From NCBI GenBank assembly GCA_965221775.1, contig CBDCSU010000006.1, positions 1,568,001 through 1,632,000 on the forward strand: a DNA stretch of 64,000 nt, in the 5' to 3' direction. Position numbers and translations under genes: made by a program. Under the pieces are notes generated by a model. The model did not search any database. It saw only the letters and a list, made by a program, of their open reading frames with translations, and had not been told where the DNA came from. This document shows positions 19,098 to 63,833 of the stretch, piece by piece (within the stretch, counting starts at the first letter, position 1; every line of letters begins with the position of its first letter). Origin of the DNA: Candidatus Latescibacterota bacterium. GTDB taxonomy: Bacteria > Latescibacterota > UBA2968 > UBA8231.

Positions 19098-19449
19098 GGG
19101 GGTCTGGCAAGGGACGGTGCCGGCGGCTCCGGCCGCGCCTCGGCGGCGCGTACGCCGGGCCTGGGGGGTGGGACTATCGACTTGGGGTGGTTCGTGGGGC
19201 TGGCGAGCCCCTCGCTGCGCTCGGGTCTCTGGGCCTCCTGGATGCGTGGTGGTTGTTGACCCCGGCCCGGCGTAATGCGCCGCTCGGCTCGGCCTGCGCC
19301 TCCGTCACCGCCCATAGGGGGGACCACCCACCACACACTGTTCTGGGCCGGGTGGCGCCTGGGGGTGGTTCGGGGCCGGGGGTGGCTCCGGCGCCACTCG
19401 ATCTGGTGGTACGCCGGTTTGCTGGGCCAGGGTTGGCGGGGATCCCGAA
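19098..19449 (+). repeat. Dispersed hairpin repeat copy A (modules 1+2)
   Basis: Conserved blocks CGGCGGCTCCGGCCGCGCCTCGGCGGCGCGTACGCCGGG, CTATCG, GGGGCTGGCGAGCCCCTCGCTGCGCTCGGGTCTCTGGG, GTTGACCCCGGCCCGGCGTAATGCGCCGCTCGGCTCGGCCTGCGCC, CCGGCGCCACTCGAT. Confidence 0.95.
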
Positions 19450-21395: not shown

Positions 21396-21775
21396 GTTGG
21401 ATTGGATTGAAGATAGGGGTGGGTGGGGGGTTCTGGGAGGGGGCGGTGCCGGCGGCTCCGGCCGCGCCTCGGCGGCGCGCCGGGGCCTGGGGGGGTGGGG
21501 CTATCGACTTGGGGTGGTTCGGGGGGCTGGCGAGCCCCTCGCTGGGCTCGGGTCTCTGGGTCCTCTTGGATGCGTGGTGGTTGTTGACCCCGGCCCGGCG
21601 AAGTGCGCCGCTCGGCTCGGCCTGCGCCGCCGTCACCGCCTCACGGGGGGGACCTCACCCACACACTGTTTCTGGGCCGGGTGGCGCCTGGGGGTGGTTC
21701 TGAGCCGGGGGTGACTCCGGCGCCACTCGATCTGGTGGGGCGCTGGCCTGGTGGGGTGCTGTTGGTGGGGGATCC
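21396..21775 (+). repeat. Dispersed hairpin repeat copy B (modules 1+2, extended left leader)
   Basis: Same conserved blocks as copy A; leader GTTGGATTGGATT..AAGATA shared with copy E. Confidence 0.95.
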
Positions 21776-22045: not shown

Positions 22046-22190
22046 GGTGTGGGGAGGGTGTCTGCCCGGGGCAGTTCCGAGCGGCTCGGACTCGCCTCGG
22101 CGCCGCGTATGGGGGCCTAGGTGGTGGAGCTATCGGCGCCGGTGGTTCGAGGGGTCGGCGAGCCCCCCACTGCGCTCGGGTCTCTCGGCC
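22046..22190 (+). repeat. Degenerate 5' part of the dispersed repeat (copy C)
   Basis: gcggctcggactcgcctcggcgccgcgta..gtggtggagctatcg..ggtggttcg..ggcgagcccc..ctgcgctcgggtctct. Confidence 0.85.
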
Positions 22191-22419
22191 CGGTGCACCT
22201 ACAGACAGATATCACTTCAACACCCACCTGACCCAACCCTCATCGACAAGCGGCTCGAAGGGAGGTGCCACCGGTGTCCGGTCTCCCCAGAACCCGCTTC
22301 AATGTCAACCTGATCCGATGCTCCATCGGAAGGGGCCTTCCAATCCAGGCAGGACTTCACCCCGGGCGACCACGCTCAAGACCACTCATCGATGCGCCCC
22401 TCCACCCAACGGAGCCCCA

Positions 22420-29970: not shown

Positions 29971-30333
29971 GGGGGGCGGGGTGGGGTTCTGGCGGGGGCG
30001 GTGCCGGCGGCTCCGGCCGGGCCTCGGCGGCGCGTACGCCGGGCCTGGGTGGTGGAGCTATCGACTTGGGGGGGTTCGTGGGGATGGCGAGCCCCTCGCT
30101 GGGCTCGGGTCTCTGGGCCTCCTGGATGCGGGTGGTTGTTGACCCCGGCCCGGCGTAATGCGCCGCTCGGCTCGGCCTGCGCCGCCGTCACCGCCCATGG
30201 GGGGACCACCCATCCACACACTCTTCTGGGCCGTGTGGCGCCTGGGGGTGGTTCCGGGCCGGGGGTGGCTCCGGCGCCACTCGACTCGGTGGGGCGCCGG
30301 CCTGGTGGGGTGCTGTTGGTGGGGAAGCCCGGA
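29971..30333 (+). repeat. Dispersed hairpin repeat copy D (modules 1+2)
   Basis: Same conserved blocks; fills the whole gap between convergent genes. Confidence 0.95.
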
Positions 30334-31590: not shown

Positions 31591-31960
31591 GTTGGATTGG
31601 ATTGGGTTCAAGATAAGGGTGGGAGGGGGGGTCTGGCAGGGGGCGGTGACGTCGGCTCCGGCCGCGCCTCGGCGGCGCGTACGCCGGGCCTGGTTGGTGG
31701 GGCTATCGCCTGGGGTGGATTCGTGGGGCTGGCGAGCCCCTCGCTGCGCTCGGGTCTCTGGGCCTCCTGGATGCGGTGCTTGTTGTCGCGGCCCTGCGTA
31801 ATGCGCCGCTCGGCCCGGCCTGCGCCGCCGTCACCGCTCTGAGTGGAACCTCACCCACAGACTCTTTTCTGGCGGGTGGCGCTTGGCAGGGGTTCTGAGC
31901 GGGGGGTGACTCCGGCGCCCCTTGGTACGGTGGCGCCGGGCTGCTGGGCTGGCGTTTGCC
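31591..31960 (+). repeat. Dispersed hairpin repeat copy E (modules 1+2, extended left leader)
   Basis: Same conserved blocks; arms GCGGTGACG/CGTCACCGC. Confidence 0.92.
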
Positions 31961-39394: not shown

Positions 39395-40768
39395 ATGGAG
39401 CTGACGCTCTACGACTCCTACTCGCGAAGCGAACGCGTCTTCGAGCCCCTCGGGTCGCCCGTCGGACTGTATGCCTGCGGGCCGACAGTCTACGACTACG
39501 CCCACATCGGCAACCTGAGGACCTACGTCTTCGAGGACGTGCTGCGGCGGGTGCTGGAGCACAACGGCTACGAGGTTCACCATGTAGTGAACATCACCGA
39601 CGTGGGTCACCTGACGTCGGACGCGGACACGGGCGAGGACAAGATGGAGCGGGGAGCGCGGCGCACCGGCAAGAGCGCCTGGTGGGTGGCGGACTTCTAC
39701 ACCCGGGCCTTCGAGGAAGACCTGCGCCGGCTCAACGTCCTCGAGCCGACGGTGTGGTGCAAGGCCACGGCCTACATCGACGAGCAGATCGACGTCATCC
39801 GCTCGCTGGAGGAGCGCGGCTTCATCTACAAGACCTCCGACGGGATCTACTTCGACACCTCCCGGCAGCCGGACTACGGCCGGCTGGCGCGGTTGGATGC
39901 GAAGGGGCTGCAGGCCGGCGCCCGCGTCGAGCTGGGCGAGAAGCGTCTGGCCACGGACTTCGCCTTGTGGAAGCTGAGCCCGGCCGACAGCAGGCGGCAG
40001 ATGGAGTGGGACAGCCCCTGGGGGCGGGGGTTCCCGGGGTGGCACACGGAGTGCGTGGCCATGTCGCAGTCCCATCTGGGCCCGCAGTTCGACATCCACT
40101 GCGGCGGCGAAGACCATCTCGCCATTCACCATGTGAACGAGATCGCCCAGGCCGAGGCCTGCTACGGGACCCGGCTCGCCCGGTTCTGGATGCACGGCCG
40201 GTTCCTGGTCCTCGACGACGAGCGCATGTCCAAGTCGAGCGGGTCCTTCCTGACTCTCGACAGCCTGGTCGAGGCGGGATACGACCCGCTGGCCTACCGG
40301 ATGTTCCTGCTCGGGGCGCACTACCGGCGGCCCCTCAGCTTCAACTGGGAAGCCCTTGACGCGGCGACGGCGGCCCTGGAACGGCTGCGCCGCACCGCCC
40401 ACGCCTGGGGTCCCGCCGGCGAGCCGGACCCGGCCTCCCTCGAGGCGTTCACGCGCTGCCTCAACAGCGACCTCAACATGCCCCGGGCCCTGGCCGTGGT
40501 CTGGGACCTGGTGCGGTCGGAGCTTCCCGACCAGGTGAAGAAGGGGACGCTGCTGGCCTTCGACAGCGTCCTCGGCCTCGGTCTGGCCGACTGGGAACCG
40601 CCCCAGGAGGAGATTCCGCCCGAGGTCGAGGAGATGGTGCGGCGGCGGACCGAGGCCCGGGGGCAGCGGGACTTCGAGACTGCAGACGCCCTCAGGGCGC
40701 AGATCCTCGAGGCCGGGTTCGACGTGGACGACCTGCCGGACGGCCCGAGGGTGAAGAGGCGCTCCTAG
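39395..40768 (+). CDS. cysS: Cysteine--tRNA ligase
   Basis: YACGPTVYDYAHIGN, NITDVGH, DFALWK, PGWHTEC, DIHCGG.D, RMSKS. Confidence 0.96.
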   Translation: MELTLYDSYSRSERVFEPLGSPVGLYACGPTVYDYAHIGNLRTYVFEDVLRRVLEHNGYEVHHVVNITDVGHLTSDADTGEDKMERGARRTGKSAWWVADFYTRAFEEDLRRLNVLEPTVWCKATAYIDEQIDVIRSLEERGFIYKTSDGIYFDTSRQPDYGRLARLDAKGLQAGARVELGEKRLATDFALWKLSPADSRRQMEWDSPWGRGFPGWHTECVAMSQSHLGPQFDIHCGGEDHLAIHHVNEIAQAEACYGTRLARFWMHGRFLVLDDERMSKSSGSFLTLDSLVEAGYDPLAYRMFLLGAHYRRPLSFNWEALDAATAALERLRRTAHAWGPAGEPDPASLEAFTRCLNSDLNMPRALAVVWDLVRSELPDQVKKGTLLAFDSVLGLGLADWEPPQEEIPPEVEEMVRRRTEARGQRDFETADALRAQILEAGFDVDDLPDGPRVKRRS

Positions 40769-40975
40769 GCAGGGGCGGCGCCGGCGGCTCCGGCCGCGCC
40801 TCGACGGCGCGTACGCCGGGCCTGATTGGTGGGGCTATCGACGGGGGTGGTTCGTGGGGTTGGCGAGCCCCTCGCTGCGCTCGGGTCTCTGGGTCCTCTT
40901 GGATGCGGGTGGTTGTTGACCCGGCCGGCGTAATGCGCCGCTCGGCTCGGCCTGCGCCGCCGTCGCCGCCCTGGG
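40769..40975 (+). repeat. Dispersed hairpin repeat copy H (module 1 only)
   Basis: Starts right after the cysS stop; arms GGGCGGCG/CGCCGCCC. Confidence 0.95.
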
Positions 40976-41044
40976 CTCCCCGTGCCGGATGAACTTTTCC
41001 CCGCTGACGTCCGCCTTGCAGTGTGGAAGGGTGGACGACGCATC

Positions 41045-44683: not shown

Positions 44684-44689
44684 GGGTCC

Positions 44690-49665: not shown

Positions 49666-49669
49666 AGGT

Positions 49670-50473: not shown

Positions 50474-50543
50474 CGTTCAGACCTCTGGACTGGGAAGCGG
50501 CGACCGTCCCCCAATGAACCATGTCAGAACATGTGCTGCCAAC

Positions 50544-51584
50544 TCATGGCCCCACGGCGTACCGCCGCACCGCATCCTCGTCCAGCTCGACCCCCAGCCC
50601 CGGCTTGTCCGGGACCACCGCATGGCCGTCCCGGACCAGCGGTTCAGCGAGCAGGCTGTGCTCGTGGACGAAGTTGCCGCAGAGGTCGCTGGCCAGGGTG
50701 CAGTTGGGAGCGGCGGCGGAGGCGTGGAGGCGGAAGGCGTCGAAGATCCCCAGGTCGACGTTGGAGGCCTGCCATACGGGGATGCCCGCGGCCTCGGCGA
50801 TCCGCGCCATGTCGAGGAAGGCCCAGTCCGATGGGGCGACGTTGATCCCGTCCACGGCGTCGCGGGACACCATCTCGATCACCTGACGGGGGTTCTGCAG
50901 GTGGGGGGCGATGAGGATCGATGTCGCTTCCTTGAGGCGCCGGTAGTCGTCCACGTCGTCCTTGGGGATCGGATCTTCGAAGACGACGTCATACGCCTCG
51001 ATCTCGCGGGCCAGGGCCAGGGCCTGCTCGACGGTATGGAACCGGTGGCCGGGATCGAGGACGATGCGCAGCGTTGGCGCGGCCTCGTGTATGGCGTGCA
51101 CCCGGTCCGCCACGTCTCCATGGTCCAGGGAGCACTTCACCTTGATGCCGCGGAAGCCCTGTTCCGACGCCCGTCTGGCGGCGGCGGCTGACGCTTCCGG
51201 TCCCATGCGCGCGATCCAGTAGTCGACCAGAACGCGGTCCTGGGCCTTGCCGCCGAAGATGCGGTAGAGGGGCCAGCCGATCGCCTTGCCGATCAGATCC
51301 AGCAGGGCGATGTCGAATCCGCCACCCCCCAGGCTGCGGGGCTCGAAGTCGAGGGGGTTCTTCCCGATCAGGTCCGGGGCGGGATGCTCGTGGTCGCCGT
51401 AGTAGGGCCCGCTCATGCCGAGGCCGGTGATTCCCTCGTCGGTGTGGATGTGGAGCACATCCTGGTTCCTCTCGCCGAGGGCGGCGGGATAGGACTCGGT
51501 GAACTCCTCGTACCGGGGTGGGGGCAGGATGCCGGGCCGAAAGGGGACGCGGACTGCGGTGCGTTCCAGGTGCGTGATCCTCAT
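50544..51584 (-). CDS. Mandelate racemase/muconate lactonizing enzyme family protein
   Basis: TDEGITGLG, DIALLDLIGK, GIKVK, FEDP, VPDKPGLGVELDE. Confidence 0.88.
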   Translation of the reverse strand: MRITHLERTAVRVPFRPGILPPPRYEEFTESYPAALGERNQDVLHIHTDEGITGLGMSGPYYGDHEHPAPDLIGKNPLDFEPRSLGGGGFDIALLDLIGKAIGWPLYRIFGGKAQDRVLVDYWIARMGPEASAAAARRASEQGFRGIKVKCSLDHGDVADRVHAIHEAAPTLRIVLDPGHRFHTVEQALALAREIEAYDVVFEDPIPKDDVDDYRRLKEATSILIAPHLQNPRQVIEMVSRDAVDGINVAPSDWAFLDMARIAEAAGIPVWQASNVDLGIFDAFRLHASAAAPNCTLASDLCGNFVHEHSLLAEPLVRDGHAVVPDKPGLGVELDEDAVRRYAVGP

Positions 51585-51597
51585 GGGTCTCCTCGTG

Positions 51598-51920
51598 GGG
51601 TCTCCTCGTGCTGGCGGTGCCCGGCGGCTCCGGCCTCGCCTCGGCGGCGCGTACGCCGGGCTTTAGTGGTGGATCTATCGCCTTGGGTGATCCTCAGGGC
51701 TGGCGAGCCCCTCGCTTCGCTCGGGTCTCTGGGCCTTCTGGATGAGTTTGGTTGTTGACCCCGGCCCGGCGTAAGGGCGCCGCTCGGCTCGGCCTGCGCC
51801 GCCGGGCACCGCCCAGGGTTCGGATTGCTGCCCACCCCTCGCTTCTCTTGTGGGTGTGGCGCCGGGTGGGATTCTGTGCCGGTGGTGGATCCGGCGCCAC
51901 TCGATGCGGTGCCCGCAGGC
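51598..51920 (+). repeat. Dispersed hairpin repeat copy J (modules 1+2)
   Basis: Arms GGCGGTGCCCGGCGGC (51613-28) / GCCGCCGGGCACCGCC (51798-813). Confidence 0.95.
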
Positions 51921-51964
51921 CAGCGGTTGCCGCTGTCACCGCTGAGCCGCACGAAGGCAGGCCG

Positions 51965-52537
51965 CTACCGCTCTCCGCGCTGCATCCGCTCAAACTCTGC
52001 CCGTGAGATCTCGAAGTCCAGCACCCTCCCACCATCCACTTCCCTGGCGATGGTCAGACCGAGGGAACGCCACAGGGCCACGGAACGCGCATTGTCGGAA
52101 GACACATCCATCGCGCAAAGCCGGTCGATTCCCAAGTCTTCGAAGGCGTACGCCATGAGGCGCTGCGCCGCCTCCTTTCCGTATCCCCTTCCCCACAGGG
52201 ACTTGTCCCAGATTCCGATGGGCAGGCGCATCACCTTCTCACCCGGCACCTTCCCCCGATCCTGGTTCATCCACTGAAGACAGACTTCGCCGATGGTGCG
52301 GCCGCTCGCCTTCTCGACGATGGCGAAGAGGAATCCCTGCTCCGCCATGGCCTTTCCCGCGCGTCTGAGATAGCCGGCCGTGACGGGTTCCTCCGGAGGC
52401 TCCCCTTCCATCGCATTCAGGAAGTCGGGATCTCGATAGTACGGAACGGCCAGATCGAAGTCCCCATCCTCGAATGGCCGGAGTCTCAGGCGCGCTGTTT
52501 CCAGGTGGAGGTTGTGACGGGCGAAGTTGTCCATCAT
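51965..52537 (-). CDS. GNAT (RimJ/RimL-like) acetyltransferase
   Basis: LETARLRLRPF, FAIVEK..G..IG, WGRGYGKEA, NARS..L...LG. Confidence 0.85.
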   Translation of the reverse strand: MMDNFARHNLHLETARLRLRPFEDGDFDLAVPYYRDPDFLNAMEGEPPEEPVTAGYLRRAGKAMAEQGFLFAIVEKASGRTIGEVCLQWMNQDRGKVPGEKVMRLPIGIWDKSLWGRGYGKEAAQRLMAYAFEDLGIDRLCAMDVSSDNARSVALWRSLGLTIAREVDGGRVLDFEISRAEFERMQRGER

Positions 52538-52546
52538 CTCGAGGGT

Positions 52547-52840
52547 GGGTCTCCTCCTGGTGGGCGGTGACTGCGGCTCCGGCCTCGCCTCGGCGGCGCG
52601 TACGCCGGGCTGCGTTGGTGGATCTATCGCCTTGGGTGATCCTCAGGGCTGGCGAGCCCCTCGCTGCGCTCGGGTCTCTGGGCCTTCTGGATGAGGCTGG
52701 TTGTTGACCCCGGGCCGGCGTAATGCGCCGCTCGGCTCGGCCTGCGCCGCCGTCACCGCCCAGGGGTTGGATCGCTGGCCACATGCGCCGGTGGTGACTC
52801 CGGCGCCACTCGATGTGGTGGTGCGCTGCCCTGGTGGGGC
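52547..52840 (+). repeat. Dispersed hairpin repeat copy K (module 1 + shortened module 2)
   Basis: Arms TGGGCGGTGAC (52561-71) / GTCACCGCCCA (52752-62); centre almost identical to copy J. Confidence 0.95.
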
Positions 52841-52955
52841 CGCGTCGTCACAGAAGCCGTACAATAGCGCAAGCCAGCTGCGGCTGGTCCCGATGAATTG
52901 CCGACGATTCGCCGGTTCCCGGTCCCCTTCGTCGAAAATGTACCCATTGCGAATA

Positions 52956-55217
52956 ATGAAGATGATCTTGTTCCCTTTGGCCCTCCTGCTCGGCACCCTG
53001 TCCATCCCGCCGGGCAGCCAGGCTCAAGACCATGCCCGCTGGGGGTTGCCGGAGGGTGCCGCCCTCCGTCTGGGCAAGGGGCGCACCGGTGAAGGCGACC
53101 GGGCCGTGGCTTACTCCCCCGATGGCACCCGGCTGGCGGTGGCCGGCAACCTCGGCGTCTGGCTCTACGATGTCCACACGGGTGCCGAGGTCGCCCTGCT
53201 CACAGGCCATGCTGCTCCCGTAAACTCCGTGGCCTTTGCGCCGGATGGACAAACCCTCGCCAGTGCGAGTGCCGACCATACGGTGAGGTTGTGGGACATC
53301 GAGACGGCACGGTCAGAGGTCACCCTCGAAGGCCATCTGAAGGATGTCCTCTGCGTCGCGTTCTCCCCGGACGGACAAACCCTGGCTACCGGCAGCAGGG
53401 ACCAGACAGTGCGGTTGTGGCAGGCGGCCACCGGAGAGCCGAAGGCTACCCTCCACGGAGAAGCGTCCTCGGTCAATGCTCTGGCCTTCTCCCTCGATGG
53501 TCAAACCCTCGCCAGTGGCTACCGAAACGGCACCGCTCGGTTGTGGGACGGATTTACCGGAGAACCCGGGGCCGCCCTCGAAAGAGGCCGAGCGGGGCGC
53601 ATCAATACGGTAGCCTTCGCGCCCGATGGTCAGACCCTGGCCACTGGCAGGCAGCAAACGATCGACTTGTGGGACGTCAACAGCGGACAGCCGCGAGCCA
53701 CCCTGCACGACATGGGCGTGCATACATCCTGGGTCAACTCCGTAGCCTTCTCACCTGATGGCAGGACCCTCGCCAGCGTGGGCTCGAACCACGTGATCGC
53801 GTTGTGGGAGATCGACTCCGTGCAACGAAAGGCCAAGTTCAAGGAGCGAGGCGCCGACTTCACTTCCGTGGCCTTCTCGCCCGATGGAACTACACTCGCC
53901 AGTGCCGGGAGGGACAACAGAATACGGCTGTGGGACGTCCGCACCGGACTGGAGGAGATCACTATCCTGGACCATGGGCATGGGGACAGGGTCAGTTCCG
54001 TTGCCTTCGCCCCCGATGGCACCACCCTCGCCAGCAGTAGCTGGGACGGGACGCTGCGACTGTGGGACCTCGGCACGGGACAGGCAGAAGCCACCCTGAA
54101 GACCCCTTGGGGGCCTGTCAGTTCTGTTGCTTTCTCGCCCGATGGCGAAACCCTCGCAAGTGGCCATTGGGTTTACTTCGTTATGCTGCTGGACATCGCC
54201 GCATTCCGGAAGGCCACCTTGGAAACCTCGACCATCTCCTGGAGAACGTCGTTGACGAGGATCCTCAAAGGCCATCGGAATGATGTGCTCTGCGTGGCGT
54301 ACGCCCAGGATGGAGAGACCCTGGCCAGCGGCGATGAGAACGGGATCGTGCGGTTGTGGGACGTGTCCAGCGAGCAGGAACGGGCTACCCTGCAGGAACA
54401 TGGTGAACGTGTCCTGTCCGTGGCCTTCTCGCCCACTGGAGAGGTGCTCGCCAGCGCCAGCGGAGACGAGACGGCGCGGGTCTGGGATGCGGACAGTGGA
54501 CAACTGAAGTCCACTCTGCGGCACACGGGCTGGGTCACTTCCGTTGCTTTTTCGCCGGACGAGAGAACCCTCGCCAGCGGGGGCTGGGATCAGAAGGTCA
54601 GGCTGTGGGAGCTGAGCAGTGGCCAGCAAGTGGGCACCCTCGAGGTCGATGGCTCCTGGATCAATGCGGTAGCCTTCTCGCCTCGCGGAAACGTCCTTGC
54701 CAGCGCCGGTTCGGACCAGACCGTCAGGCTGTGGGAAGTGAGCACCGGGCAGCCAAGGGCCGTCTTCAAAGGCCATGTGGAATCGGTCCTTTCGGTGACG
54801 TTCTCGCCGGACGGGAACCTCCTTGCCAGTGCCAGCACGGACGGCACGATTCTGCTGTGGGATACGTCCCCATCCGCCGCTCCGCCCGCGCCGACGGCGA
54901 TTCGGGTTGCCACGCCGCTGCCGGCGCGGACGGCGCTGCTGGCCAACTTCCCCAATCCCTTCAATCCGGACACCTGGATTCCGTTTCAGCTCCACGCGCC
55001 GGCTCACGTACGGCTGAACATCTACGATGTGCGGGGAGCCTTGGTGCGCAGAATCGACCTGGGTCATCGTGCGGCGGGCCAGTACCTGACCCGTGCCGGC
55101 GCCGCCCACTGGGATAGCCGCAACCATCGCGGTGAACGGGTGTCCAGCGGCGTCTATCTGTACTCCCTGCAGGCAGGGCCGGCCACCCACGTACGCAAGA
55201 TGGTCCTCACCAGGTAG
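52956..55217 (+). CDS. Secreted WD40-repeat protein with FlgD-Ig/T9SS-sorting-like C-terminal domain
   Basis: Signal peptide; WGLPEGA..RLGKG; about 14 GH..V.SVAFSPDG.TLAS...D..VRLWD repeats; LLANFPNPFNPDTWIPFQL...VSSGVYLY.L..RKM. Confidence 0.92.
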   Translation: MKMILFPLALLLGTLSIPPGSQAQDHARWGLPEGAALRLGKGRTGEGDRAVAYSPDGTRLAVAGNLGVWLYDVHTGAEVALLTGHAAPVNSVAFAPDGQTLASASADHTVRLWDIETARSEVTLEGHLKDVLCVAFSPDGQTLATGSRDQTVRLWQAATGEPKATLHGEASSVNALAFSLDGQTLASGYRNGTARLWDGFTGEPGAALERGRAGRINTVAFAPDGQTLATGRQQTIDLWDVNSGQPRATLHDMGVHTSWVNSVAFSPDGRTLASVGSNHVIALWEIDSVQRKAKFKERGADFTSVAFSPDGTTLASAGRDNRIRLWDVRTGLEEITILDHGHGDRVSSVAFAPDGTTLASSSWDGTLRLWDLGTGQAEATLKTPWGPVSSVAFSPDGETLASGHWVYFVMLLDIAAFRKATLETSTISWRTSLTRILKGHRNDVLCVAYAQDGETLASGDENGIVRLWDVSSEQERATLQEHGERVLSVAFSPTGEVLASASGDETARVWDADSGQLKSTLRHTGWVTSVAFSPDERTLASGGWDQKVRLWELSSGQQVGTLEVDGSWINAVAFSPRGNVLASAGSDQTVRLWEVSTGQPRAVFKGHVESVLSVTFSPDGNLLASASTDGTILLWDTSPSAAPPAPTAIRVATPLPARTALLANFPNPFNPDTWIPFQLHAPAHVRLNIYDVRGALVRRIDLGHRAAGQYLTRAGAAHWDSRNHRGERVSSGVYLYSLQAGPATHVRKMVLTR

Positions 55218-55232
55218 AGGCTGGCAGCGCGA

Positions 55233-56195
55233 TCAGAGGAACCGGTCGAACCAGTCGACCACCTGTTCGAAGGCGTCCACCGTGAAGATGTGACCGCCCG
55301 GGGGCCGGTGCACCAGGAAGCGGTCTTCGGCTTCGGCGTAGGCCGGGGTTACGGTGCGGATGAGGTCGTCCACGGCGGCGCTCGGCATGTCGACGTCGTC
55401 GAGAGGGGCGACGGCCATGAAGGGGCGGGGGGCGATGCAGCCGGCGACGATGTCGCCGTGATCGAAGTAGCGCAGCAGGTGTGGCACGAAGACCAGGGAG
55501 CTGTGGCGCCAGATGTTGCCCTCGTGGATCAGGCGGGCCAGGCTGCCGAGGACCCCGCAGACGGCGGCGCTGGCGCGGATGGTGGGATCGCACGCCATCG
55601 CCGTCCAGGTGGCCATGCCGCCCAGGGACATGCCGGTCAGGCCGATGCGCGCGCCGTCGACCCCGGGGAAGGCGGCCAGGGCGCGCGCCGCAAGCAGGGC
55701 TTCCTCCGCGACGATGCCGGCGTGAGGGCGGCCGTACGCCTCCAGCAGCTTCGCCTCCTCCTCCCATGCTTCCTCGGTGGCGCGGCGGACCACGGACCCC
55801 TTGAGGGAGATCGAGATCGTCGCGTATCCGCGGTTGGCCAGCTCACGGCCCCACCCCCGCAGCTGTCCGCTCTCCGGGTCGATCTCGAGTCGGCCGGCGA
55901 GGACGTTCGCCGTCGTTCCGCCGGTGCCGTGCATGCAGACCACGCCGGGGACCCGGTCGCCGGATGGATCGAGGGGCACGAGAGCGGTGCCGGTCAGCGT
56001 CTCGCCGAGGGAGTTCGCATAGGAGAGACGCAGCTCCCGGTGGACTCCGTCCTCGGCCACGGTTTTCGCGGCGGCATCCACCTCCCCGGGAATGCGGTCC
56101 ATTCCGAGAAGCTCCAGAAACCGGGCGCGTACCTGGCCGGACGGCGTGTCCCGCGGAAAGGCGGGGCGAATGCCGCGGGGCAGGGGGTTGGTCAT
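55233..56195 (-). CDS. Alpha/beta hydrolase (dienelactone hydrolase-like)
   Basis: PGVVCMHG, VD..RIGLTGMSLGG, IAPRP, GGH.F. Confidence 0.85.
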   Translation of the reverse strand: MTNPLPRGIRPAFPRDTPSGQVRARFLELLGMDRIPGEVDAAAKTVAEDGVHRELRLSYANSLGETLTGTALVPLDPSGDRVPGVVCMHGTGGTTANVLAGRLEIDPESGQLRGWGRELANRGYATISISLKGSVVRRATEEAWEEEAKLLEAYGRPHAGIVAEEALLAARALAAFPGVDGARIGLTGMSLGGMATWTAMACDPTIRASAAVCGVLGSLARLIHEGNIWRHSSLVFVPHLLRYFDHGDIVAGCIAPRPFMAVAPLDDVDMPSAAVDDLIRTVTPAYAEAEDRFLVHRPPGGHIFTVDAFEQVVDWFDRFL

Positions 56196-57811
56196 CGTTT
56201 CCCTCTCCGGTAGGTGATGTCGATCTCGAGGCCGATGAGTGATACGTGGCGCTCAGAGGCGCGGGCGTCCGAGAGCAGACGGACCTCGATCTCGTTCTCA
56301 CCCTGTCGCAGCGGCGGGGCGGTGACGGCGTACGAGGCGCTCGATCCCTCCATGTGCTGCTCCACCGGCTCGGCGGGGTAGCTCAGCCAGAACAGGGACG
56401 CCGCGGTCAGCTCCTTCCAGCCGTCGTAGGAGACCTCCGCCCCGCTCCAGTCCAGCTCCCTCCCGTTGAGGCGGACGCGGAGGGAGTCGCTCTCCTCCAG
56501 GGCGTCGAACCGCAGGGTCAGCCGGCAGGGGCCCAACTCGCCGGCCTCGCGCGCCTCTTCCAGATCGTCGGCGATCGCCAATCGCAGGACCGGTCCCTCG
56601 CCGGGGTAGTTTGGCTGTGGGCGCACCGGCAGTTGCGTCTGCGACTGGGCCAGGGCGAAGGCGCTGCTGTGGCCGGAGGAGCCGTACGCGGAGCCGGTGG
56701 TTTCCAGCTCGTAGCGCTTGTCGAGGCGGCGGAGCTTCTCCCGGTCGGTCAGCTCGGAGGCGATGCGGCGGTTCCACTCGCGCGAGCGCGTAAAGAAGTT
56801 GTAGAGGTAGACACCGTGGGCGCCGTCCTCGAGCCAGCGGAGAGCCAGGGCGCGCAGCTTGCGGTCGTCGCTGTCCCGGGTCGCCTCGATGCATCCGTAC
56901 ACCAGCGCGCCGGTTCCCGAGGCCGCCGCGACGAACTCGTCCACCCGCGTCTCGAAGGAGATGAAGCCGCCCCCGACGACGACGATGTCCACCAGGCCCT
57001 CCTCCAGCCAGCGGACGACGTCGAGGCCGACGCGGTTGCAGTCGGCGATCCCCGGAGGCACGCGGACCCCGAGCAGCAGGCGGCGCCCGCGGTCGGCGGA
57101 GACGGTCTGCATGCGGGCGCGTACCTCGCGCACGAGGCCGGTCATGTAGTGGCGGTTGGCGTAGCCCTCCTCGACGCGGAAGAAGGCCGGGTGGCGCATG
57201 AAGTCGAGCTCGACGCCGTCGACGTCGAAGCGCTCGAAGCACTCGCAGATGATGCCGGTGACGAAGGCGCGGTTGCCGGGGTGGGCGTAGTCGAGGCCGG
57301 TGCCGATGCCGTGCTCGATGGTGCCCTCGGCGAAGCGCTCGCCGGGGCGGGCGATGAGGCGGTCCGGGTGGCGGCGGCGGTAGTTGCCGTACGCCGGGTG
57401 GCGGGGGTCGATAACGTAGTGGCTGTTCATGCGGACCCGCGGAAAGAAGGGGATGCCCCGTTCCCGGCAGAGGCGCAGGAGGGCGGTCAGGGGGCCGCCG
57501 CACTCCTCGATGAGAGAGCGGACGTTGGCGGCGACCTTCGGGTAGGTGTCGTCATCGCCGGCGGAGTGAACGAAGGAGTAGAGGTCGTCGAGGCCTTCGA
57601 GGGTGGGCTGCTCCTGTCCGAAGATCTCGCCGATTTGGGTCTCGAAGTGGTAGACCTCGTGATCGCCGGTCGACCACCAGAGGGCGCCGCCGGTGCCGGC
57701 GTACCCGGCGACGACTTTGTCGCGCAGGTCGGACTCGGTGACGGGGGGGTCGGAGTTGAGGATCCAGGCGTCGTCGGTGAAGATGATTCTTGGGAAGTCG
57801 GGTTTGGCCAT
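56192..57811 (-). CDS. Putative glycoside-hydrolase-like TIM-barrel protein (GHL10-like)
   Basis: RIIFTDD, RVRMN, LDYAHP, FDVDGVELDFMRHP, GLDV..W..EGLVD, GVYLYNFF. Confidence 0.7.
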   Translation of the reverse strand: MAKPDFPRIIFTDDAWILNSDPPVTESDLRDKVVAGYAGTGGALWWSTGDHEVYHFETQIGEIFGQEQPTLEGLDDLYSFVHSAGDDDTYPKVAANVRSLIEECGGPLTALLRLCRERGIPFFPRVRMNSHYVIDPRHPAYGNYRRRHPDRLIARPGERFAEGTIEHGIGTGLDYAHPGNRAFVTGIICECFERFDVDGVELDFMRHPAFFRVEEGYANRHYMTGLVREVRARMQTVSADRGRRLLLGVRVPPGIADCNRVGLDVVRWLEEGLVDIVVVGGGFISFETRVDEFVAAASGTGALVYGCIEATRDSDDRKLRALALRWLEDGAHGVYLYNFFTRSREWNRRIASELTDREKLRRLDKRYELETTGSAYGSSGHSSAFALAQSQTQLPVRPQPNYPGEGPVLRLAIADDLEEAREAGELGPCRLTLRFDALEESDSLRVRLNGRELDWSGAEVSYDGWKELTAASLFWLSYPAEPVEQHMEGSSASYAVTAPPLRQGENEIEVRLLSDARASERHVSLIGLEIDITYRRGKR

Positions 57812-57825
57812 GGGTCTGCCTTCTT

Positions 57826-58050
57826 GGGGGTCTCGCCTCGGGCGGGCGTCGCCGGCGGCTCCGGCCGCGCCTCGGCGGCGGCGTACGCCGGAGTGGTTGG
57901 GGGGACTATCGCTGAAGGGGATCCTTGGGGCTGGCGAGCCCCTCGCTGCGCTCGGGTCTCTGGGCCCTCTGAAATGAAGGAGGTGATGACCCCCCGGCGT
58001 AATGCGCCGCGACGGCGCGGCCTGCGCCGCCGGCGACGCCCTTGGAGGGG
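57826..58050 (+). repeat. Dispersed hairpin repeat copy L (module 1)
   Basis: Arms GGGCGTCGCCGGCGGC (57844-59) / GCCGCCGGCGACGCCC (58026-41). Confidence 0.93.
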
Positions 58051-58140
58051 AGGGTTTGTGGTCGGCGGCGTGGCCAAGTGCAGAGGAGGACTCGCGACGG
58101 GAATGTGGTGAAAGATGGACATGGGACTTTGGTGCCGGGA

Positions 58141-58652
58141 TCATGCATCGGGTCTGGTGAGGAGAGCGGGGAGTGTGTCTGGCAGGGATCGGAGGTCGTG
58201 GATGGTCCGGTAGAGCTGCCCGACTCTCGATTCGTTTGATGATTTGTTCAGCCAGATGCTGCGGATTCCCGCGCGGGTGGCTCCGAGGATGTCGTTCTCG
58301 AAGTCGTCGCCGACCATGACGATGCGGTCTCTGTCCATGGGAAGGTCCGTGACGATGTGGTCGAAGAAAGCGGGGGCCGGCTTCTTGTGGCCGATCGTCT
58401 GGAAGCAGAACACCCGGTCCAGCAGGTGGGCGATGCCGCCGCGGTCGAGGGCTCTCCAGACGGAGGGCTCGTCCGAGGCGACGGCGTTGGTGGCGAGGGC
58501 CAGGGTCCAGTGTGGATGTAGTTGAAGCAGGATGTCCTCGACGCCGGGAAGGGTCTCCACCCGGGGCCAGTCGGCCATGGGCCCTCGGCGTCGGGGAAGT
58601 CCCGCATCAGGGTGTTGCCCCAGTCGAAGAGGATGCAGCGGCTCTCTCTCAT
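58141..58652 (-). CDS. HAD-superfamily hydrolase, split by a 1-nt frameshift near 58580
   Basis: ILFDWGNTL in one frame; LATNA, KPAP, MVGDDFENDI.GA in another; ATGA overlap with the MFS stop. Confidence 0.78.
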
Positions 58653-59881
58653 GGGGCGGCTTCCTCTCTCCGGCTCACGAATCCGCGCAGGAAGAGGGCC
58701 GTCGCCGCGATCCCCAGGCCCCCCAGGGCGGCCATGATGCCCACGGAGCCCTGGGCGCCCCAGGTCTCGGCCAGGGCGCCGCTCTGCAGGCGGCCGAAGG
58801 GGCCGACGCCGATGGCCACGACCAGGGTGCCCATGGCGCGGCTGCGCATCTCGTCGGAGGACCTCACCAGGATGATGCTGCTCTGCATGATGCTGAAGCC
58901 GGCCTGCCCGAGGCCGGAGCAGAACAGCATCACGAGGGCCAGGCCGAGGCCGCCGCTGAAGGCGAAGGCGGCGATGCCCAGGCACGACAGCAGCGAGCCG
59001 CCGACGAAGACCCACTCGTTGCTCAGGTTCCTGCGGCCGAGCTGGACGGCGATCAGACCGACGATCGTCCCGGCGCCGCTGGCCGCGCCCAGCCACCCCA
59101 TCGCTTCCGGGCCGAGGCCGTACACGTCGCGGGCGAAGACGGGCAGCAGGTTCATGTAGGGGAAGGTCCAGATGTTCATCAGGACGGTGACGAGGAAGAC
59201 GCCGAAGATCGGGGCCGAGGCCCGCAGGCTCGTCCATCCCTGCCGGCCCGCCCACCCCGACGACCATGTGGCCCCGGCGGGGGCCCTGGAGTCGGTCTTC
59301 ATGCCGGCCAGGAGGATCAGGCCCAGGAAGCCCAGCGCGACCAGCACCAGCAGGGCGCCCAGGCTGCCGTAGGCGGCGGTCACGTAACCCGCCGCCAGGG
59401 GGCCGCCCACGCGCGTGATCCCCTGGATGACGTTCTCCAGCACCATGGCGTCGACGGTGCGGGCCTTGCCGACGAGATCGGGCACCATGCTGCGGCGGGT
59501 GGGCCAGTCCAGGGCCCAGACGGCCCCGAGCACCAGCGACACCGCCGACAGGTGCCAGATCTCGAGCTCTTCGCGGTAGAGGAGGAGCGCCAGCAGCCCC
59601 ATCCCGAGCACGTTGATCAACTGCAAGGTCGAGACGATGTAGCGGCGCCTGAAGCGGTCGGTGATCACGGCGCCGAAGAGACCGACGATCAGCAGCGGAA
59701 TGGCGCGGTAGAAGGCGATGACCTGGACCCACCACGGGGAGTTGGTCACCTCCAGGGCCAGCCACCCCAGGGCCAGCATCTCCATCCACATGGACTGCCA
59801 CCAAAGGCCGTTGGCCAGCCACAGGCGCACGAAGTCGCCGCTGGCCAGGGGTTCGAGGACGCTGCCTCTGGCAAGTCTCAT
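58649..59881 (-). CDS. MFS transporter
   Basis: About 12 TM segments; GAVITDRFRRR, WPTRRSMVPDLV, EMRSRAMG. Confidence 0.88.
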   Translation of the reverse strand: MRLARGSVLEPLASGDFVRLWLANGLWWQSMWMEMLALGWLALEVTNSPWWVQVIAFYRAIPLLIVGLFGAVITDRFRRRYIVSTLQLINVLGMGLLALLLYREELEIWHLSAVSLVLGAVWALDWPTRRSMVPDLVGKARTVDAMVLENVIQGITRVGGPLAAGYVTAAYGSLGALLVLVALGFLGLILLAGMKTDSRAPAGATWSSGWAGRQGWTSLRASAPIFGVFLVTVLMNIWTFPYMNLLPVFARDVYGLGPEAMGWLGAASGAGTIVGLIAVQLGRRNLSNEWVFVGGSLLSCLGIAAFAFSGGLGLALVMLFCSGLGQAGFSIMQSSIILVRSSDEMRSRAMGTLVVAIGVGPFGRLQSGALAETWGAQGSVGIMAALGGLGIAATALFLRGFVSRREEAAP

Positions 59882-59918
59882 GGGGCGGCCTAAATTACGC
59901 GCCAGCCGGCCCAGAGCC

Positions 59919-61370
59919 ATGAACCGCCCCAACATCCTCTTCATCCTCTCCGACCAGCACAGCAAGCACCACCTCGGCTGCTACGGCGACCCGGTGGTGC
60001 GCACCCCGCACCTGGACCGCCTGGCCGGGGAGGGGATGCGCTTCACCAATGCGTACACCGCCTCGCCTTTGTGCGTGCCGGCGCGCATGGCCTTCATGAC
60101 CGGGCGGCGGCCCAGCGCCAACGAGGCCTGGCTCAACGAGCACATCCTCAGCTCGGCCCTGCCCACCTGGGCTCACGCCCTGGGCGCCGCCGGATACGAG
60201 ACCGCCCTCATCGGCCGCATGCACTTCGTCGGCCCCGACCAGCGCCACGGCTTCGAGCGCCGGCCCATCGGCGAGTATGCCATGTATCCCGGAGCGGCCC
60301 GGCAGGGCGCGCCCATGTTCAAGACGATCCCCGCCAGCACCTCGGGCCAGACCCGCGAGTCCGTCGAGATCGCCGGCCACGGCCGCACCACGTACCAGTC
60401 CTTCGACGACCGCGTCGCCGACGCGGCCTGCGCCTACCTGGAGGAACAGGCGCAAGGGCGGGGCCGGCCCTTTGCCGCGGTGGCCGGCTTCCTGCTGCCC
60501 CACTGCCCGTTCTTCGCGCCCAGGGACCTCTACGACTACTACTACGACCGCGTCGACGTGCCGCAGCCCGACCCGGCCGGGGAGCCGGCGGCGGTGACCA
60601 ACTTCAAGAAGCACCGCGGCATCGCCGAGCCCCTGCCCGAAGAGCGCATCCGCGTGGCGCGGGCGGCCTACTTCGGCCTGTGCGAGTACTTCGACCGCAA
60701 GGTCGGCCAGCTCCTCGACACTCTCGACCAGACCGGTCTGAGCGACAACACCCTGGTGGTCTACGCCAGCGACCACGGCGAGATGGCCGGCGAGCACGGC
60801 TGCTGGTGGAAGAGCAACTACTACGAGGGCTCGGTGGGCGTCCCCCTCATCGCCCGCCTGCCCGGGGTGGTGCCCGCCGGCGTGGAGAGCGCGGCGATCT
60901 GCAATCTGCTGGACTGGGCCCCTACCGCCGTGGAAGTGGCCGGCGGCACACCCATGCCCGCCCTCGACGGCCATTCCCTGTGGAGCGAGATGCGGGGCCT
61001 GCCGGACGAGTCCCGGCCCGATGTCACATTCAGCGAGCTGGGGCCGACTCGGGGGGATCCTCCTTCACGGATGATCCGGCGCGGACCGTGGAAGCTGTAT
61101 GCGTATCACGGGGACACGCCTCCGGCGTTGTTCAATCTGGAGGATGACCCGGGGGAGTGGAACGACCTGGCCGGAGATGACGCTTGCCGCGCCGTGCGGC
61201 AGGAGTTGCTGGAGCAGCTCTACGAGGGCTGGGACCCGGAGCGGGTGGCGCGGCGCAGCGCCGAGCTGATGCGGGACTCGGAGGTTCTGGTGGCATGGGG
61301 GGAGGCGGTGCAGCCGGTGCATGAGGATACGCTGGCGGTGGAGGATGTAGAGGATGTGGTGCGCTGTTGA
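59919..61370 (+). CDS. Sulfatase (choline-sulfatase-like)
   Basis: RPNILFILSDQH, TPHLDRLA, SPLCVPAR (CxPxR), GRMH, PH.P, SDHGEM, LFNL..DPGE. Confidence 0.92.
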   Translation: MNRPNILFILSDQHSKHHLGCYGDPVVRTPHLDRLAGEGMRFTNAYTASPLCVPARMAFMTGRRPSANEAWLNEHILSSALPTWAHALGAAGYETALIGRMHFVGPDQRHGFERRPIGEYAMYPGAARQGAPMFKTIPASTSGQTRESVEIAGHGRTTYQSFDDRVADAACAYLEEQAQGRGRPFAAVAGFLLPHCPFFAPRDLYDYYYDRVDVPQPDPAGEPAAVTNFKKHRGIAEPLPEERIRVARAAYFGLCEYFDRKVGQLLDTLDQTGLSDNTLVVYASDHGEMAGEHGCWWKSNYYEGSVGVPLIARLPGVVPAGVESAAICNLLDWAPTAVEVAGGTPMPALDGHSLWSEMRGLPDESRPDVTFSELGPTRGDPPSRMIRRGPWKLYAYHGDTPPALFNLEDDPGEWNDLAGDDACRAVRQELLEQLYEGWDPERVARRSAELMRDSEVLVAWGEAVQPVHEDTLAVEDVEDVVRC

Positions 61371-61730
61371 GGGGTGGTGGGTGGTTCCGCTTGGCCGGGC
61401 GGTGCCGGCGGCTCCGGCCGCGCCTTTGGCGGCGCGTACGCCGGGCCTGGTTGGTTGGGGCTATCGACTGGGGGTGGGTTCGTGGGGCTGGCGAGCCCCT
61501 CGCTTCGCTCGGGTCTCTGGGCCCTCTTGGATGCGTGCAGGTGGTGACCCCGCCCGGCGTAGTGCGCCGCCCAGGCGCGGCCTGCGCCGCCGGCACCGCC
61601 CTGCGTGGGTGAGATCCGGCACACTCTTTCTTGTGAACCGGGGTGGCGCCTGACGGGGTCCTGGGCCGATGGTGGGTCCGGCGCCACTCGATCTGGTGGG
61701 GCGCCAGCTTGGTGGCCTGTTGTTGACGGG
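61371..61730 (+). repeat. Dispersed hairpin repeat copy M (modules 1+2)
   Basis: Arms GGGCGGTGCCGGCGGC (61397-412) / GCCGCCGGCACCGCCC (61586-601). Confidence 0.95.
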
Positions 61731-61747
61731 GTAATCATCACGAAGGC

Positions 61748-63826
61748 ATGGAAATGGGAGCACCTCGCCGCCTGAGCCGCATCATCGAGCACTGGACCCT
61801 GCCTCGGGCGTCCCAGGTGCTCGATCATGTGCGTCGGGCGCGGATCGAGCTGGTGCAGGTGGGGAACTTCGGGGCCGACTTCTATTCGCTGGCCGGCGAC
61901 GAGAGTGTCCCGGCGTCGTGGTCGGGCATGCCTCTCGGCAGCGTGAAGGCCAGTCTCGATCTGGCGGCGGAGGTCATTCCCCGGATCCAGGAAGCCGGGG
62001 CCCTGGTGACGGGGCAGTTGTCGACGACGATGCACTTCGGCAACCACGAGGAGGGCATTGGTCTCTTCGGCCCGAACTGGTCTCGCATGTGGACCGAGGA
62101 TCTGCTGGGCCCGCCGCCGTGCGCTTCCGCCGAAGAGGTGACGCAGCGCGATGCCGACGGCTCCCTGCGGTGGCGCACCATCCCGGGGCGCCCCTACCGC
62201 ACCTATCGCGGCTGCATGAGCAACCCCGGCTGGCTGGCGGTCCTCAAGGCGATGGTGCGCAAGGGGATCGCCCTCGGGCTCGACGGCTTCAACGCCACCC
62301 ACCACTACGAGTCCCTGTGCCACTGCCGGCACTGCTGCGACTATGGGCGCCGCTACCTTGGCGCTCGGCTGACCGAAGAGGAGGTTCAGGCGATTTTCGG
62401 ATGCGCCGACCTCGAGGAGGTGCCCGACGTGTTCACCGCGCGGCCGGATGGCCCGCCGGAGCTGGCCGCCCGGCTGGAGCTCCTCCTCGCCCAGGGCTCG
62501 GCCCTCAAGCGCAAGGAGTCCTTCGACGAGGTCTTCATCGAGTTCGGGCGGTCTCTCAAACCCGACCTGCTGCTGGCGCAGTGGTACCACAAGTACGACT
62601 TCCGGCCCCACGACGAGCGGTCGCTCCTGCCGCGGGAAATGTGGGCCCGGGGCGAGGACTATCTGTGGTACAGCCAGGGGCCGTCCAAGGCGGTCTGCTC
62701 CCTCTCCCAGGGCTACCTGGCGGACATGGGGCTGCCGTCCCGGTTCCTGTACGCCGCCGGCGGCGGCCGGCCCTTCGTCATCAACAAGTACGACTACCGG
62801 CGCTGGCGTATCTGGGCCGCCGAGGCGATGGCCCATCACGGCACGGCGCTCGCCTTTCACGCCGGACCTCCGCGCCTGGATCAGGAGGAGAGCGGCAACG
62901 TCGCGCCGGAGGACTACTACGGGCCCGTCATCCGCTGCCAGCGCTTCATGTTCCAACACGAGGAACTGCTGCACCCGGCGGACCCGTGGTCGCAGGTCGC
63001 CCTCGTCTACCCGGGAAGGGCGGAGATGCAGGCGGAGATGGACTGCCTCGACGCCCTCAAGCGGCTCGGGCAACACCTGGAGGACGGCCACTGGCTCTTC
63101 GACATCCTCCTCGACGAGCAGCTGCTCGAGCGCGCCGGCGACTACGAGGCCCTCGTGCTGCCGGAGGTTCAATGGCTGAGCGCCGCGGAGGGCGAGCGGC
63201 TGGAGGAGTTCGTCCGCGGAGGAGGCCGCCTGGTCTTCACTGGCAACTGCGGACGCCTGGATGTGGACGGGTCGCCCCGCGAGGAGCCGCTGCTTCAGGC
63301 CCTGAGAGCCCCTCCGGCCGCCGGAGCGATCGGCGGCCTCACGGACGGTGCCATGCACATTCCCGATGGACCCTGGGCTCCCGAGGTGCTGCCGATCAAG
63401 GGGCTCCCGCAGGAGATGCCGGTCTTTCCCCGGCTCGAGGACGACCCCTTCGGCCAGCGGTTCCTCGCGGAGCTGGAGGATCTCCTCGGCCGTCCGCGGC
63501 TGGTCACCGACGCACCCTGGTTCGTGCGGGTCCGCGCCTGGCGCCCGCGGGAGGTGGACGCCGTGGTCATCCACTGGATCAACTACCGGCAGGACGAGGA
63601 CGCCGCCATCGAGGTGCCGATGCCGGTGGGGCCGATCGAGGCCGAGTGCGAGGTGCCCGAGGGCTGGCGGGTGAAGCGGGTCGAGTGGCGCTACCCGGAG
63701 ATGCGGGAGCCGGAGGCGCTCGCGCACCGGGAGAGCGAATCCCGCGTCCGCTTCACGATTTCGCGCCTCATCGTCCACGGCATGTGCGTTCTGCATCTGG
63801 GGCCGAGCGGCTCGGGGAGCCGGTGA
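61748..63826 (+). CDS. Hypothetical GH42-like protein with beta-galactosidase trimerisation-like domain
   Basis: C.SNPGW, CHCRHC, VALVYP, Y..LVLPEV..LS......L.EFVRGGG.LV.TG, VIHWINY. Confidence 0.65.
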   Translation: MEMGAPRRLSRIIEHWTLPRASQVLDHVRRARIELVQVGNFGADFYSLAGDESVPASWSGMPLGSVKASLDLAAEVIPRIQEAGALVTGQLSTTMHFGNHEEGIGLFGPNWSRMWTEDLLGPPPCASAEEVTQRDADGSLRWRTIPGRPYRTYRGCMSNPGWLAVLKAMVRKGIALGLDGFNATHHYESLCHCRHCCDYGRRYLGARLTEEEVQAIFGCADLEEVPDVFTARPDGPPELAARLELLLAQGSALKRKESFDEVFIEFGRSLKPDLLLAQWYHKYDFRPHDERSLLPREMWARGEDYLWYSQGPSKAVCSLSQGYLADMGLPSRFLYAAGGGRPFVINKYDYRRWRIWAAEAMAHHGTALAFHAGPPRLDQEESGNVAPEDYYGPVIRCQRFMFQHEELLHPADPWSQVALVYPGRAEMQAEMDCLDALKRLGQHLEDGHWLFDILLDEQLLERAGDYEALVLPEVQWLSAAEGERLEEFVRGGGRLVFTGNCGRLDVDGSPREEPLLQALRAPPAAGAIGGLTDGAMHIPDGPWAPEVLPIKGLPQEMPVFPRLEDDPFGQRFLAELEDLLGRPRLVTDAPWFVRVRAWRPREVDAVVIHWINYRQDEDAAIEVPMPVGPIEAECEVPEGWRVKRVEWRYPEMREPEALAHRESESRVRFTISRLIVHGMCVLHLGPSGSGSR

Positions 63827-63833
63827 GGTGAAC

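Follow-up and report, generated by a model that had tools for sequence, protein, structure and literature searches.

We analysed a 64,000-nt stretch of a Candidatus Latescibacterota genome (assembly GCA_965221775.1, contig CBDCSU010000006.1, positions 1,568,001-1,632,000; hereafter the window) and found that a repeat of ~210 nt, present there in ten copies, forms a single long imperfect hairpin in which pairing is kept and sequence is not. The hairpin belongs to a lineage-specific family, found in two genera of sponge-associated bacteria among the 31 genera searched in the class, and several divergent members lie shortly upstream of genes for IS91-type transposases. Our preferred reading, held with a little more than even confidence, is that the hairpin folds as a single strand and serves as the left-end or leader module of an IS91-type element, solo derivatives of which are present in the genome from which the window comes; the window copies would then most likely be what remains of a mobile element that has lost its transposase. 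Both the membership of the hairpin in a mobile unit and its role there we infer from the observations described below.

The source genome (G000; 5.36 Mb in 6 contigs, 70% G+C, 96.8% complete) carries the window on contig C6. The stretch was matched in sponge and marine metagenome runs from nine studies, and short contigs of one RNA and three DNA public runs over positions 49000-64000 break at the repeats. A profile search of the whole genome recovered 14 copies, all on the plus strand, within a 77-kb cluster (C6:1587112-1664132). Ten of these lie in the window, nine full and one truncated, and one cluster copy outside it is a partial tandem copy. Together with a copy found outside the cluster (C6:197041-197245), five copies of this genome therefore lie beyond the window.

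Base pairing in the hairpin family

We aligned 39 full copies from six genomes of one genus (alignment A1) and wrote the structure ourselves as four helices, P1 (16 pairs), P2 (10), P3 (8) and P4 (9), 43 pairs in total, which close a conserved asymmetric internal loop, GTA facing TAATG, and a central domain with a small hairpin, GAGCC..GG(T)CTC. The predicted fold of one window copy, copy M, has an energy of -163 kcal/mol on the plus strand and -141 on the minus strand, with z-scores against shuffled sequences of -6.8 and -7.2, respectively. In the nine full window copies, between 13 and 16 of the 16 outer-stem pairs are Watson-Crick, copy J being counted in its own register.

A previous, sequence-only reading of the window had proposed that copy-specific compensatory changes, including a compensated insertion/deletion (indel), keep the terminal stem paired. 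The arm sequences that it gave for copies J, K, L, M and H are present in the window where it had placed them. Compared with M, copy L has changed two adjacent pairs on both sides and keeps 16 of 16 pairs; copy J carries an extra C in its left arm and an extra G in its right, its arms being exact reverse complements, and neither base is present in the positional orthologues of J in G007 and G006. Across A1, 92.5% of cells are paired, compared with 36-45% after a shift of the partner column by 1-3 positions, and 9 of the 43 pairs (32 cells) have changed on both sides. The covariation score was 0.067, against 0.037 in shuffled alignments, and none of 500 shuffles, the number made for every alignment, reached the observed value.

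The states of individual pairs in the 39 copies show both compensated and uncompensated change. Pair 13/219 is T-A in 22 copies, C-G in 9 and C.A in 7; pair 56/176 is C-G in 31 and G-C in 5; pair 32/200 is C-G in 17 and C.T in 14; and pair 15/217, of which the commonest state is a C.T mismatch (17 copies), is otherwise C-G (11), A-T (6), G-C (2) or T-A (1). Many double-change cells are inherited and hence not independent, the change in L, for example, being common to the orthologues in G002 and G007. Other changes did occur within orthologue groups after speciation: the copy that follows CysRS has C.A at pair 13/219 in G006 and G007 and C-G in G000, pair 55/177 is G.G in G002 and G-C in G007 within one orthologue group, and pair 27/204 is C-G in a single G006 copy (35829) and G-C in all others. 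Mismatched intermediates thus persist in the orthologues of two species (C.A at 13/219), and a half-way T.C is seen at pair 12/220 in the G006 orthologue of L. Because such intermediates persist, stepwise compensation fits better than one-step template-switch correction.

One component of the earlier proposal was not supported. The small stem CGGCG..CGCCG, described there as kept while its loop varies, shows covariation at 0 of 10 pairs, and each change in it breaks the stem. Its bases belong to the long-range helices P3 and P4, the latter with covariation at 3 of 9 pairs, and its supposed loop, TAATG, is one side of the internal loop opposite GTA.

A covariance model built from the 39 A1 copies, followed by a second model to which divergent members had been added, recovered full-length and far more divergent members in genomes of the genus that had been negative by BLAST. 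The family is present in nine of nine genomes of this genus and in two of two of a second genus. No match was obtained in the other 65 genomes (16 genera) of the order or in the other three families of the class, within 132 genomes, in searches that used stricter filters and scored few candidates per genome. Rfam 15 returned 0 matches at the gathering score for the whole window, and only chance-level matches, up to an E-value of 10, around J, K and M.

The divergent members keep the motifs GGCGC-GTA-CGCCGG, YTGKCGAGCC..GGTCTCTGGG and CCGGCG-TAAT-GCGCC. Their inner loop and centre are conserved, and their outer helices differ in sequence yet remain paired. The central hairpin varies in length and has a CUUCGG-type tip in five copies. 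A candidate sigma-54 promoter at the central TGGCGAG..TCGCT was dropped, its GG not being kept in the divergent copies. Separately, G001, G003, G005 and G009 have between one and three units of a second short repeat, TTCGGC-N3-GCCGAA and then TCTTGC, downstream of the hairpin (L152, L157-L160, L192), and at one such locus the TTCGGC repeat is followed by a bidirectional intrinsic terminator common with a convergent gene.

As the alignment was widened, the number of pairs with changes on both sides rose from nine in A1 to 29 of 43 in A3 (24 rows, 68 cells; score 0.237, against 0.084 shuffled) and 33 of 43 in A4 (21 rows, one of them a reverse-strand hit, 168 cells; score 0.435, against 0.135 shuffled and at most 0.096 in the slid controls). 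A3 and A4 were fitted to the model and so lean towards the structure; each was compared with slid and shuffled versions of itself. The earlier claim had been made to depend on covariation in a larger alignment, and covariation exceeded that of the shuffled controls in A1, A3 and A4 alike, with 0 of 500 shuffles reaching the observed score. Compensatory pairing exceeds chance, which confirms the observation, and the covarying outer helices of A4 support the view that pairing rather than primary sequence is maintained.

One strand is favoured in this pairing. The 20 divergent copies contain 54 G.T pairs against 17 A.C pairs, the model strand folds more stably than its complement in 20 of 20, and all are G+T-rich (0.53-0.65). 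This preference, in both mismatches and fold energies, fits selection on a folded single strand, the first of two mechanisms put forward in the sequence-only reading; the second, template-switch correction within the element, fits less well, with the paired indel of J as a possible exception.

IS91-type transposase genes and recent copying

In the divergent part of the family, the start of a protein with the Pfam domains Zn_Tnp_IS91 and Y2_Tnp lies 108-127 nt downstream of the hairpin on the same strand. This arrangement was found at G091:C29, at G014:C81, at G091:C95, where the hairpin match is weak (26.8 bits) and the left flank is the same as at G014:C81, and at G005:C442, where the contig breaks off after 24 codons of the gene. 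At G091:C50, a C-terminal transposase fragment begins 61 nt after another hairpin (locus labels: L166, L167, L195 for the weak case, L008, and L191 for the fragment). The transposase-linked hairpins come from three subfamilies, indicating that the linkage is old, and a hairpin lies upstream of 4 of the 11 transposase N-termini examined. The unit that is copied in the 77-kb locus measures ~430 nt and consists of the hairpin, a spacer, a second module of overlapping palindromes and a third stretch. In G005, the leader from the hairpin to the ATG of the transposase gene (tnpA) aligns weakly with this second module (a low-scoring local alignment), and the right ends of the units likewise align weakly with the transposase leader and 5' end.

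A published account of the IS91 family (PMC13181058) gives the left end, terIS, a single imperfect palindrome in subterminal position, adjoining a CTCG or GTTC cleavage site, and describes transposition that leaves no target duplication. Termination is said there to fail in 1-14% of events, with flanking DNA then carried along, and the active intermediate is given as a bottom-strand circle (PMC13181058). Our hairpin resembles the terIS of IS91, IS801, IS1294 and ISCR in its position on the side upstream of a Zn_Tnp_IS91/Y2_Tnp gene. By comparison with that account, it may also be alike in lying, as an imperfect palindrome, near a GTTC-like tetranucleotide and in making no target duplication, and it is alike in the shuffling of neighbouring genes, which one-ended transposition can cause (PMC13181058). 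Of the 39 copies, 22 have a GT[TC]C or GTCT tetranucleotide 10-13 nt ahead of P1; shuffling the 26-nt flank gives 11.4 of 39 with the motif at any position in it. The hairpin differs from terIS in the length of the palindrome, which we put at ~10 times that of terIS (the sufficient left end of IS91 is ~89 bp), and in its conserved branched centre.

The cluster itself is syntenic and co-oriented in the near-complete sister genomes G007 (65 kb) and G006 (60 kb); in more distant members of the genus, synteny around it was lost in a DNA search for empty sites. Copies have been gained recently. The copy at 19106 is not at the same place in G007, which has ~60 nt with a small hairpin there, and none was detected at this position in G006. 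It diverges by 4.5% from the copy at 29990, which itself diverges by 6.5-8% from its own orthologues, so that 29990 is the probable source on sequence comparison. Copy K, the sister of J in the tree, is not at the orthologous place in G007 or G006, and the GNAT gene itself is not in G006. Neither of these two filled/empty comparisons showed a target duplication; both are replacements, not clean insertions. Block order around the CysRS copy, H, also differs between G000 and G006/G007.

Orthologous stems have diverged by 0.02-0.10 and the central columns 97-140 by ~0.07, compared with 0.07-0.25 (~0.17) at third codon positions of flanking genes and 0.10-0.34 in the variable parts of the element's own centre. 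The stems and core centre, being slower, are therefore constrained, or homogenised.

According to our preferred reading, the module would belong to the IS91-family lineage, with rolling-circle transposition and an HUH Y2 transposase, and would sit, wherever the transposase remains, on the left (terIS) side in the same orientation as the gene. It would have to fold single-stranded, and because of this a mutation in one arm would be followed by a matching change in the other. The folded molecule could be DNA, in the course of rolling-circle transposition, or the leader RNA of the transposase, or both. The window's ten copies and the genome's five others would be solo forms, a hairpin with a leader-like module and no transposase, that pile up in one orientation in a variable 77-kb locus and mark the edges of gene blocks differing between sister species. 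In agreement with this reading are the covariation and strand bias, the confinement to two genera, the recent copying with no target duplication seen, the shared orientation of the copies and the rearranged blocks.

Other observations do not fit it neatly, and we set them against it here. No hairpin precedes seven of the 11 transposase N-termini examined; one such gene (G001:C114) has a 125-nt leader like that in G005 without the hairpin, and the flanks of the other hairpin-less copies cease to be related ~40 nt short of the ATG. The units yielded no oriIS-like right end and showed no similarity to the DNA downstream of two transposase genes, a weak test given that both genes are apparently 3'-frameshifted. 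In G000 no transposase was found, either by PF04986 (0 matches) or by tblastn with four transposase pieces (no match at E 1e-3), nor was an IS91-type transposase found in G002 or G007; the three such genes of G006 are all far from its cluster. The favoured strand is transposase-sense, whereas the active IS91 strand is reported to be the bottom one (PMC13181058). In the subfamily of the window copies, mismatches favour neither strand: the 39 copies have 45 G.T/T.G, 26 of them at a single column pair, and 29 A.C/C.A. The solo copies appear to remain under constraint, and no clean insertion junction is visible, the ~60 nt at 19106 having been replaced. Finally, the left end of the insertion sequence may be a smaller palindrome close to the gene, in which case the big hairpin would lie outside the minimal element.

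This smaller palindrome, around CTTGCAG, was present 10-45 nt before the ATG of each transposase gene examined (L166, L167, L008, L202, L203, L207, L208, L210, L197, L198); its stem varies in sequence by copy and keeps its complementarity. It is a candidate for the true terIS, as which it is equally good, or for a stem that masks the ribosome-binding site (RBS).

Since the favoured strand is transposase-sense, a role in leader RNA would suit the hairpin better than one in displaced DNA, as with the left-end hairpins of IS200. Beuzon and co-workers reportedly described these in 1999 as a palindrome that blocks transcription and a stem that sequesters the RBS in the transposase leader. That system is alike in having a stable left-end hairpin in an element with an HUH transposase, upstream of the transposase gene and in sense with it, an arrangement that would account for a sense strand that folds as RNA. 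It is unlike ours in its Y1 transposase, a type not found in G000, and in its much smaller hairpins.

Competing explanations

The main rival, to which we give limited credence, is that the hairpin is an independent structured non-coding RNA of the host, a small RNA or a cis-acting leader, which has nothing to do with transposition and near which IS91-type elements tend to insert. The conserved internal loop and apical motifs within freely covarying closing helices would suit such an RNA, as would the G.U bias on one strand, the CUUCGG-type loops, and stems that evolve more slowly than third codon positions in copies that lack a transposase. So would the sole G000 copy outside the cluster (L187), which lies between sufB and sufC, antisense to both, and has its placement conserved across five genomes of the genus (G000, G002, G003, G006, G007), and one locus in G001, G003 and G009 where the element is followed on the same strand by small hairpins and an intrinsic terminator. 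However, at least seven distinct loci, sufBC among them, have flanking genes to which the favoured strand is antisense, and nothing promoter-like or terminator-like accompanied the window copies scanned: sigma-70 promoter and intrinsic-terminator scans of four copies gave a single terminator-like match (30850-30865, plus strand), fewer than in shuffles. Genomes carry between 1 and 15 copies, sister species differ by gains and losses, and the element is confined to two genera. Moreover, hairpin units make up ~0.1% of the genome, yet four of eleven transposase genes adjoin one.

A variant within the IS91 framework, which we regard as unlikely, is that the big hairpin acts as a further, distal signal for termination by an IS91-type transposase, at which rolling-circle copying that has passed the normal left end stops; repetition of such events would have built up the 77-kb locus as a natural ISCR-like gene-capture array. 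If this were true, the co-oriented solo hairpins would now bound accessory blocks (PhyH dioxygenases, enolase-superfamily, sulfatases, defence) that are swapped between species.

It is less probable still that pairing is kept by copying at the DNA level and not by selection, through intrastrand template switching (quasi-palindrome correction) or gene conversion. Such copying could explain how, in a single lineage, both arms of J became one base longer and how pair 27/204 went from G-C to C-G only in the G006 copy 35829. Different blocks of one copy have different nearest relatives, a pattern that suggests exchange between copies, and the copy at 40767 is nearer a paralogue (7.1%) than its positional orthologues (14-17%); the mismatches without strand bias in the window's subfamily are also in keeping with it. 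Against it, mismatches and internal loops have not been erased, as the frequent C.T states at 15/217 and 32/200 illustrate, half-compensated states are common to the orthologues of two species, and the bias towards G.T between subfamilies would be unexpected from a strand-symmetric process. Template switching or inter-copy conversion may nevertheless account for single cases such as the paired indel of J.

Integron-type sites, classical miniature inverted-repeat transposable elements (MITEs) and REPINs each fail a defining feature. An integron-like cassette array with attC-like hairpins recombined as single strands would account for co-oriented hairpins between diverse genes, kept by structure rather than sequence, for a 0.95-kb GNAT unit that lies between two copies in G000 and is not in G006, and for changes of block order at the copies. 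It is very improbable, however, given that no tyrosine recombinase is encoded in or near the locus (Pfam, 61 locus proteins; the nearest of seven PF00589 genes is >400 kb away), that the stem ends are GGGC/GCCC and not the RYYYAAC/GTTRRRY of attC R'/R'' core sites, that copies are spaced up to 25 kb apart, giving far larger 'cassettes' that would include housekeeping genes such as CysRS, and that the hairpin, at ~210 nt, is about twice the length of attC (~60-140 nt). Equally improbable is a classical MITE with arms that serve as terminal inverted repeats for a DDE transposase: the copies are non-coding, intergenic and 200-430 nt long with long inverted arms, but the arms differ between subfamilies and covary, where transposase-read repeats should be conserved, the conserved parts are the inner loop and centre, and no target duplication was seen at 19106 or K.

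ERIC/IRU elements of enterobacteria and REPIN-type repeats are intergenic, non-coding imperfect palindromes that are co-transcribed in either orientation, are kept across species and show paired stem changes. Our hairpin is like them in being a non-coding intergenic imperfect palindrome with paired stem changes, and we know of no sequence relation between them. It is unlike them in that the cluster copies occupy one locus in one orientation rather than the whole genome, and in that G000 has no RAYT gene: PF01797 (IS200-like Y1) gave 0 matches there, and the control search was positive in 6 of 14 named genomes.

Setting of the window copies

Positions of the window copies and of the second module are listed below. 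The copies occupy intergenic gaps of all kinds, with left ends that abut either the stop of a plus-strand gene or the ATG/RBS of a minus-strand gene, six each by our count. The neighbouring genes are mutually unrelated (enolase-superfamily, GNAT, GHL10, sulfatase, PhyH dioxygenases, CysRS, a sigma factor and a WD40 protein). For CysRS, the closest matches beyond the genus come from Anaerolineae MAGs (62-66% identity), with other phyla next, among them Latescibacterota and many Betaproteobacteria (57-64%).

Table. Hairpin copies and second module in the window (core hairpin, P1-P4 with central domain; pairs refer to the outer stem).
Feature	Position	Strand	Arms	Pairs	Remarks
Full copy	19106..19319	+			Gained in this lineage
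Full copy	21435..21647	+			~75 nt from ATG of minus-strand dihydroxy-acid dehydratase gene
Truncated copy	22063..22191	+			Broken just 3' of central hairpin, where a lower-G+C (55-62%) segment begins
Full copy	29990..30202	+			26 nt past stop of plus-strand gene
Full copy	31635..31845	+			64 nt from ATG of minus-strand PhyH gene
Copy H	40767..40977	+		15/16	Occupies whole gap from CysRS stop (40768) to sigma-factor gene start (40982)
Copy J	51607..51820	+	51613-51628 / 51798-51813		Extra C:G pair in outer stem; between GNAT stop and enolase-superfamily ATG, both genes minus strand
Second module	51853..51911	+			Overlapping palindromes GTGGCGCC..GGCGCCAC..GTGGGGCGCC; also at 52762-52820 and 61640-61698
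Copy K	52556..52767	+		15/16	Adjoins ATG (52537) of minus-strand GNAT gene
Copy L	57838..58047	+	57844-57859 / 58026-58041	16/16	Left end abuts ATG (57811) of minus-strand GHL10-like gene
Copy M	61391..61607	+	61397-61412 / 61589-61604	16/16	177.9 bits

The segment that starts exactly where the truncated copy breaks off (~22000-26000, 55-62% G+C) contains, on the minus strand at 22420-24650, a DUF4435 gene (288 aa) and an AAA_15/AAA_21 ATPase gene (455 aa), which we take to be the domain pair of PARIS-type anti-phage defence. A HicB-like antitoxin gene lies at 21776-22021, and the locus also includes a PIN-domain gene and two DUF4143/AAA_14 ATPase genes (window 44200-45919; L002:3883-5142), one of the latter adjoining a hairpin copy. 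At 52890-55217, on the plus strand, a 775-aa protein with at least 11 WD40 repeats is encoded; the 126-nt periodic repeat families D1, D2 and D5 are the WD40 repeats of this gene and are separate from the hairpin element. Together with ankyrin-repeat genes (35142-35807 and 38045-39139) and a HEAT-repeat gene outside the window, this content of eukaryote-like repeats is typical of symbionts. The 77-kb locus as a whole (window 17719-64000 plus L001-L002) has at least nine PhyH-family dioxygenase genes, four enolase-superfamily (MR_MLE) genes, and sulfatase, heparinase-like and glycoside-hydrolase-like genes, and looks like a paralogue-rich accessory region for the breakdown of sulfated or acidic sugars.

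The cluster lies ~142 kb from dnaA in G000, G006 and G007, and GC skew is noisy. The folding strand would be the leading-strand template at both the cluster and the suf copy, but these are only two independent placements and we do not use them as evidence.

A narrow full-text literature search found no description of this element, which does not show it to be unpublished. IS91 and ISCR elements move neighbouring genes, and their end requirements beyond short palindromes are poorly known. The family described here, a local repeat that had been judged from four copies and that proved to be part of a wider group found only by structure-aware search, provides a natural series of full elements, truncated forms and solo hairpins with base-pair covariation. 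Its alignment can be used to ask which strand and which structure are read by a Y2 transposase or by its leader RNA. The case also illustrates how one variable locus is partitioned and reshuffled in an uncultured sponge symbiont.

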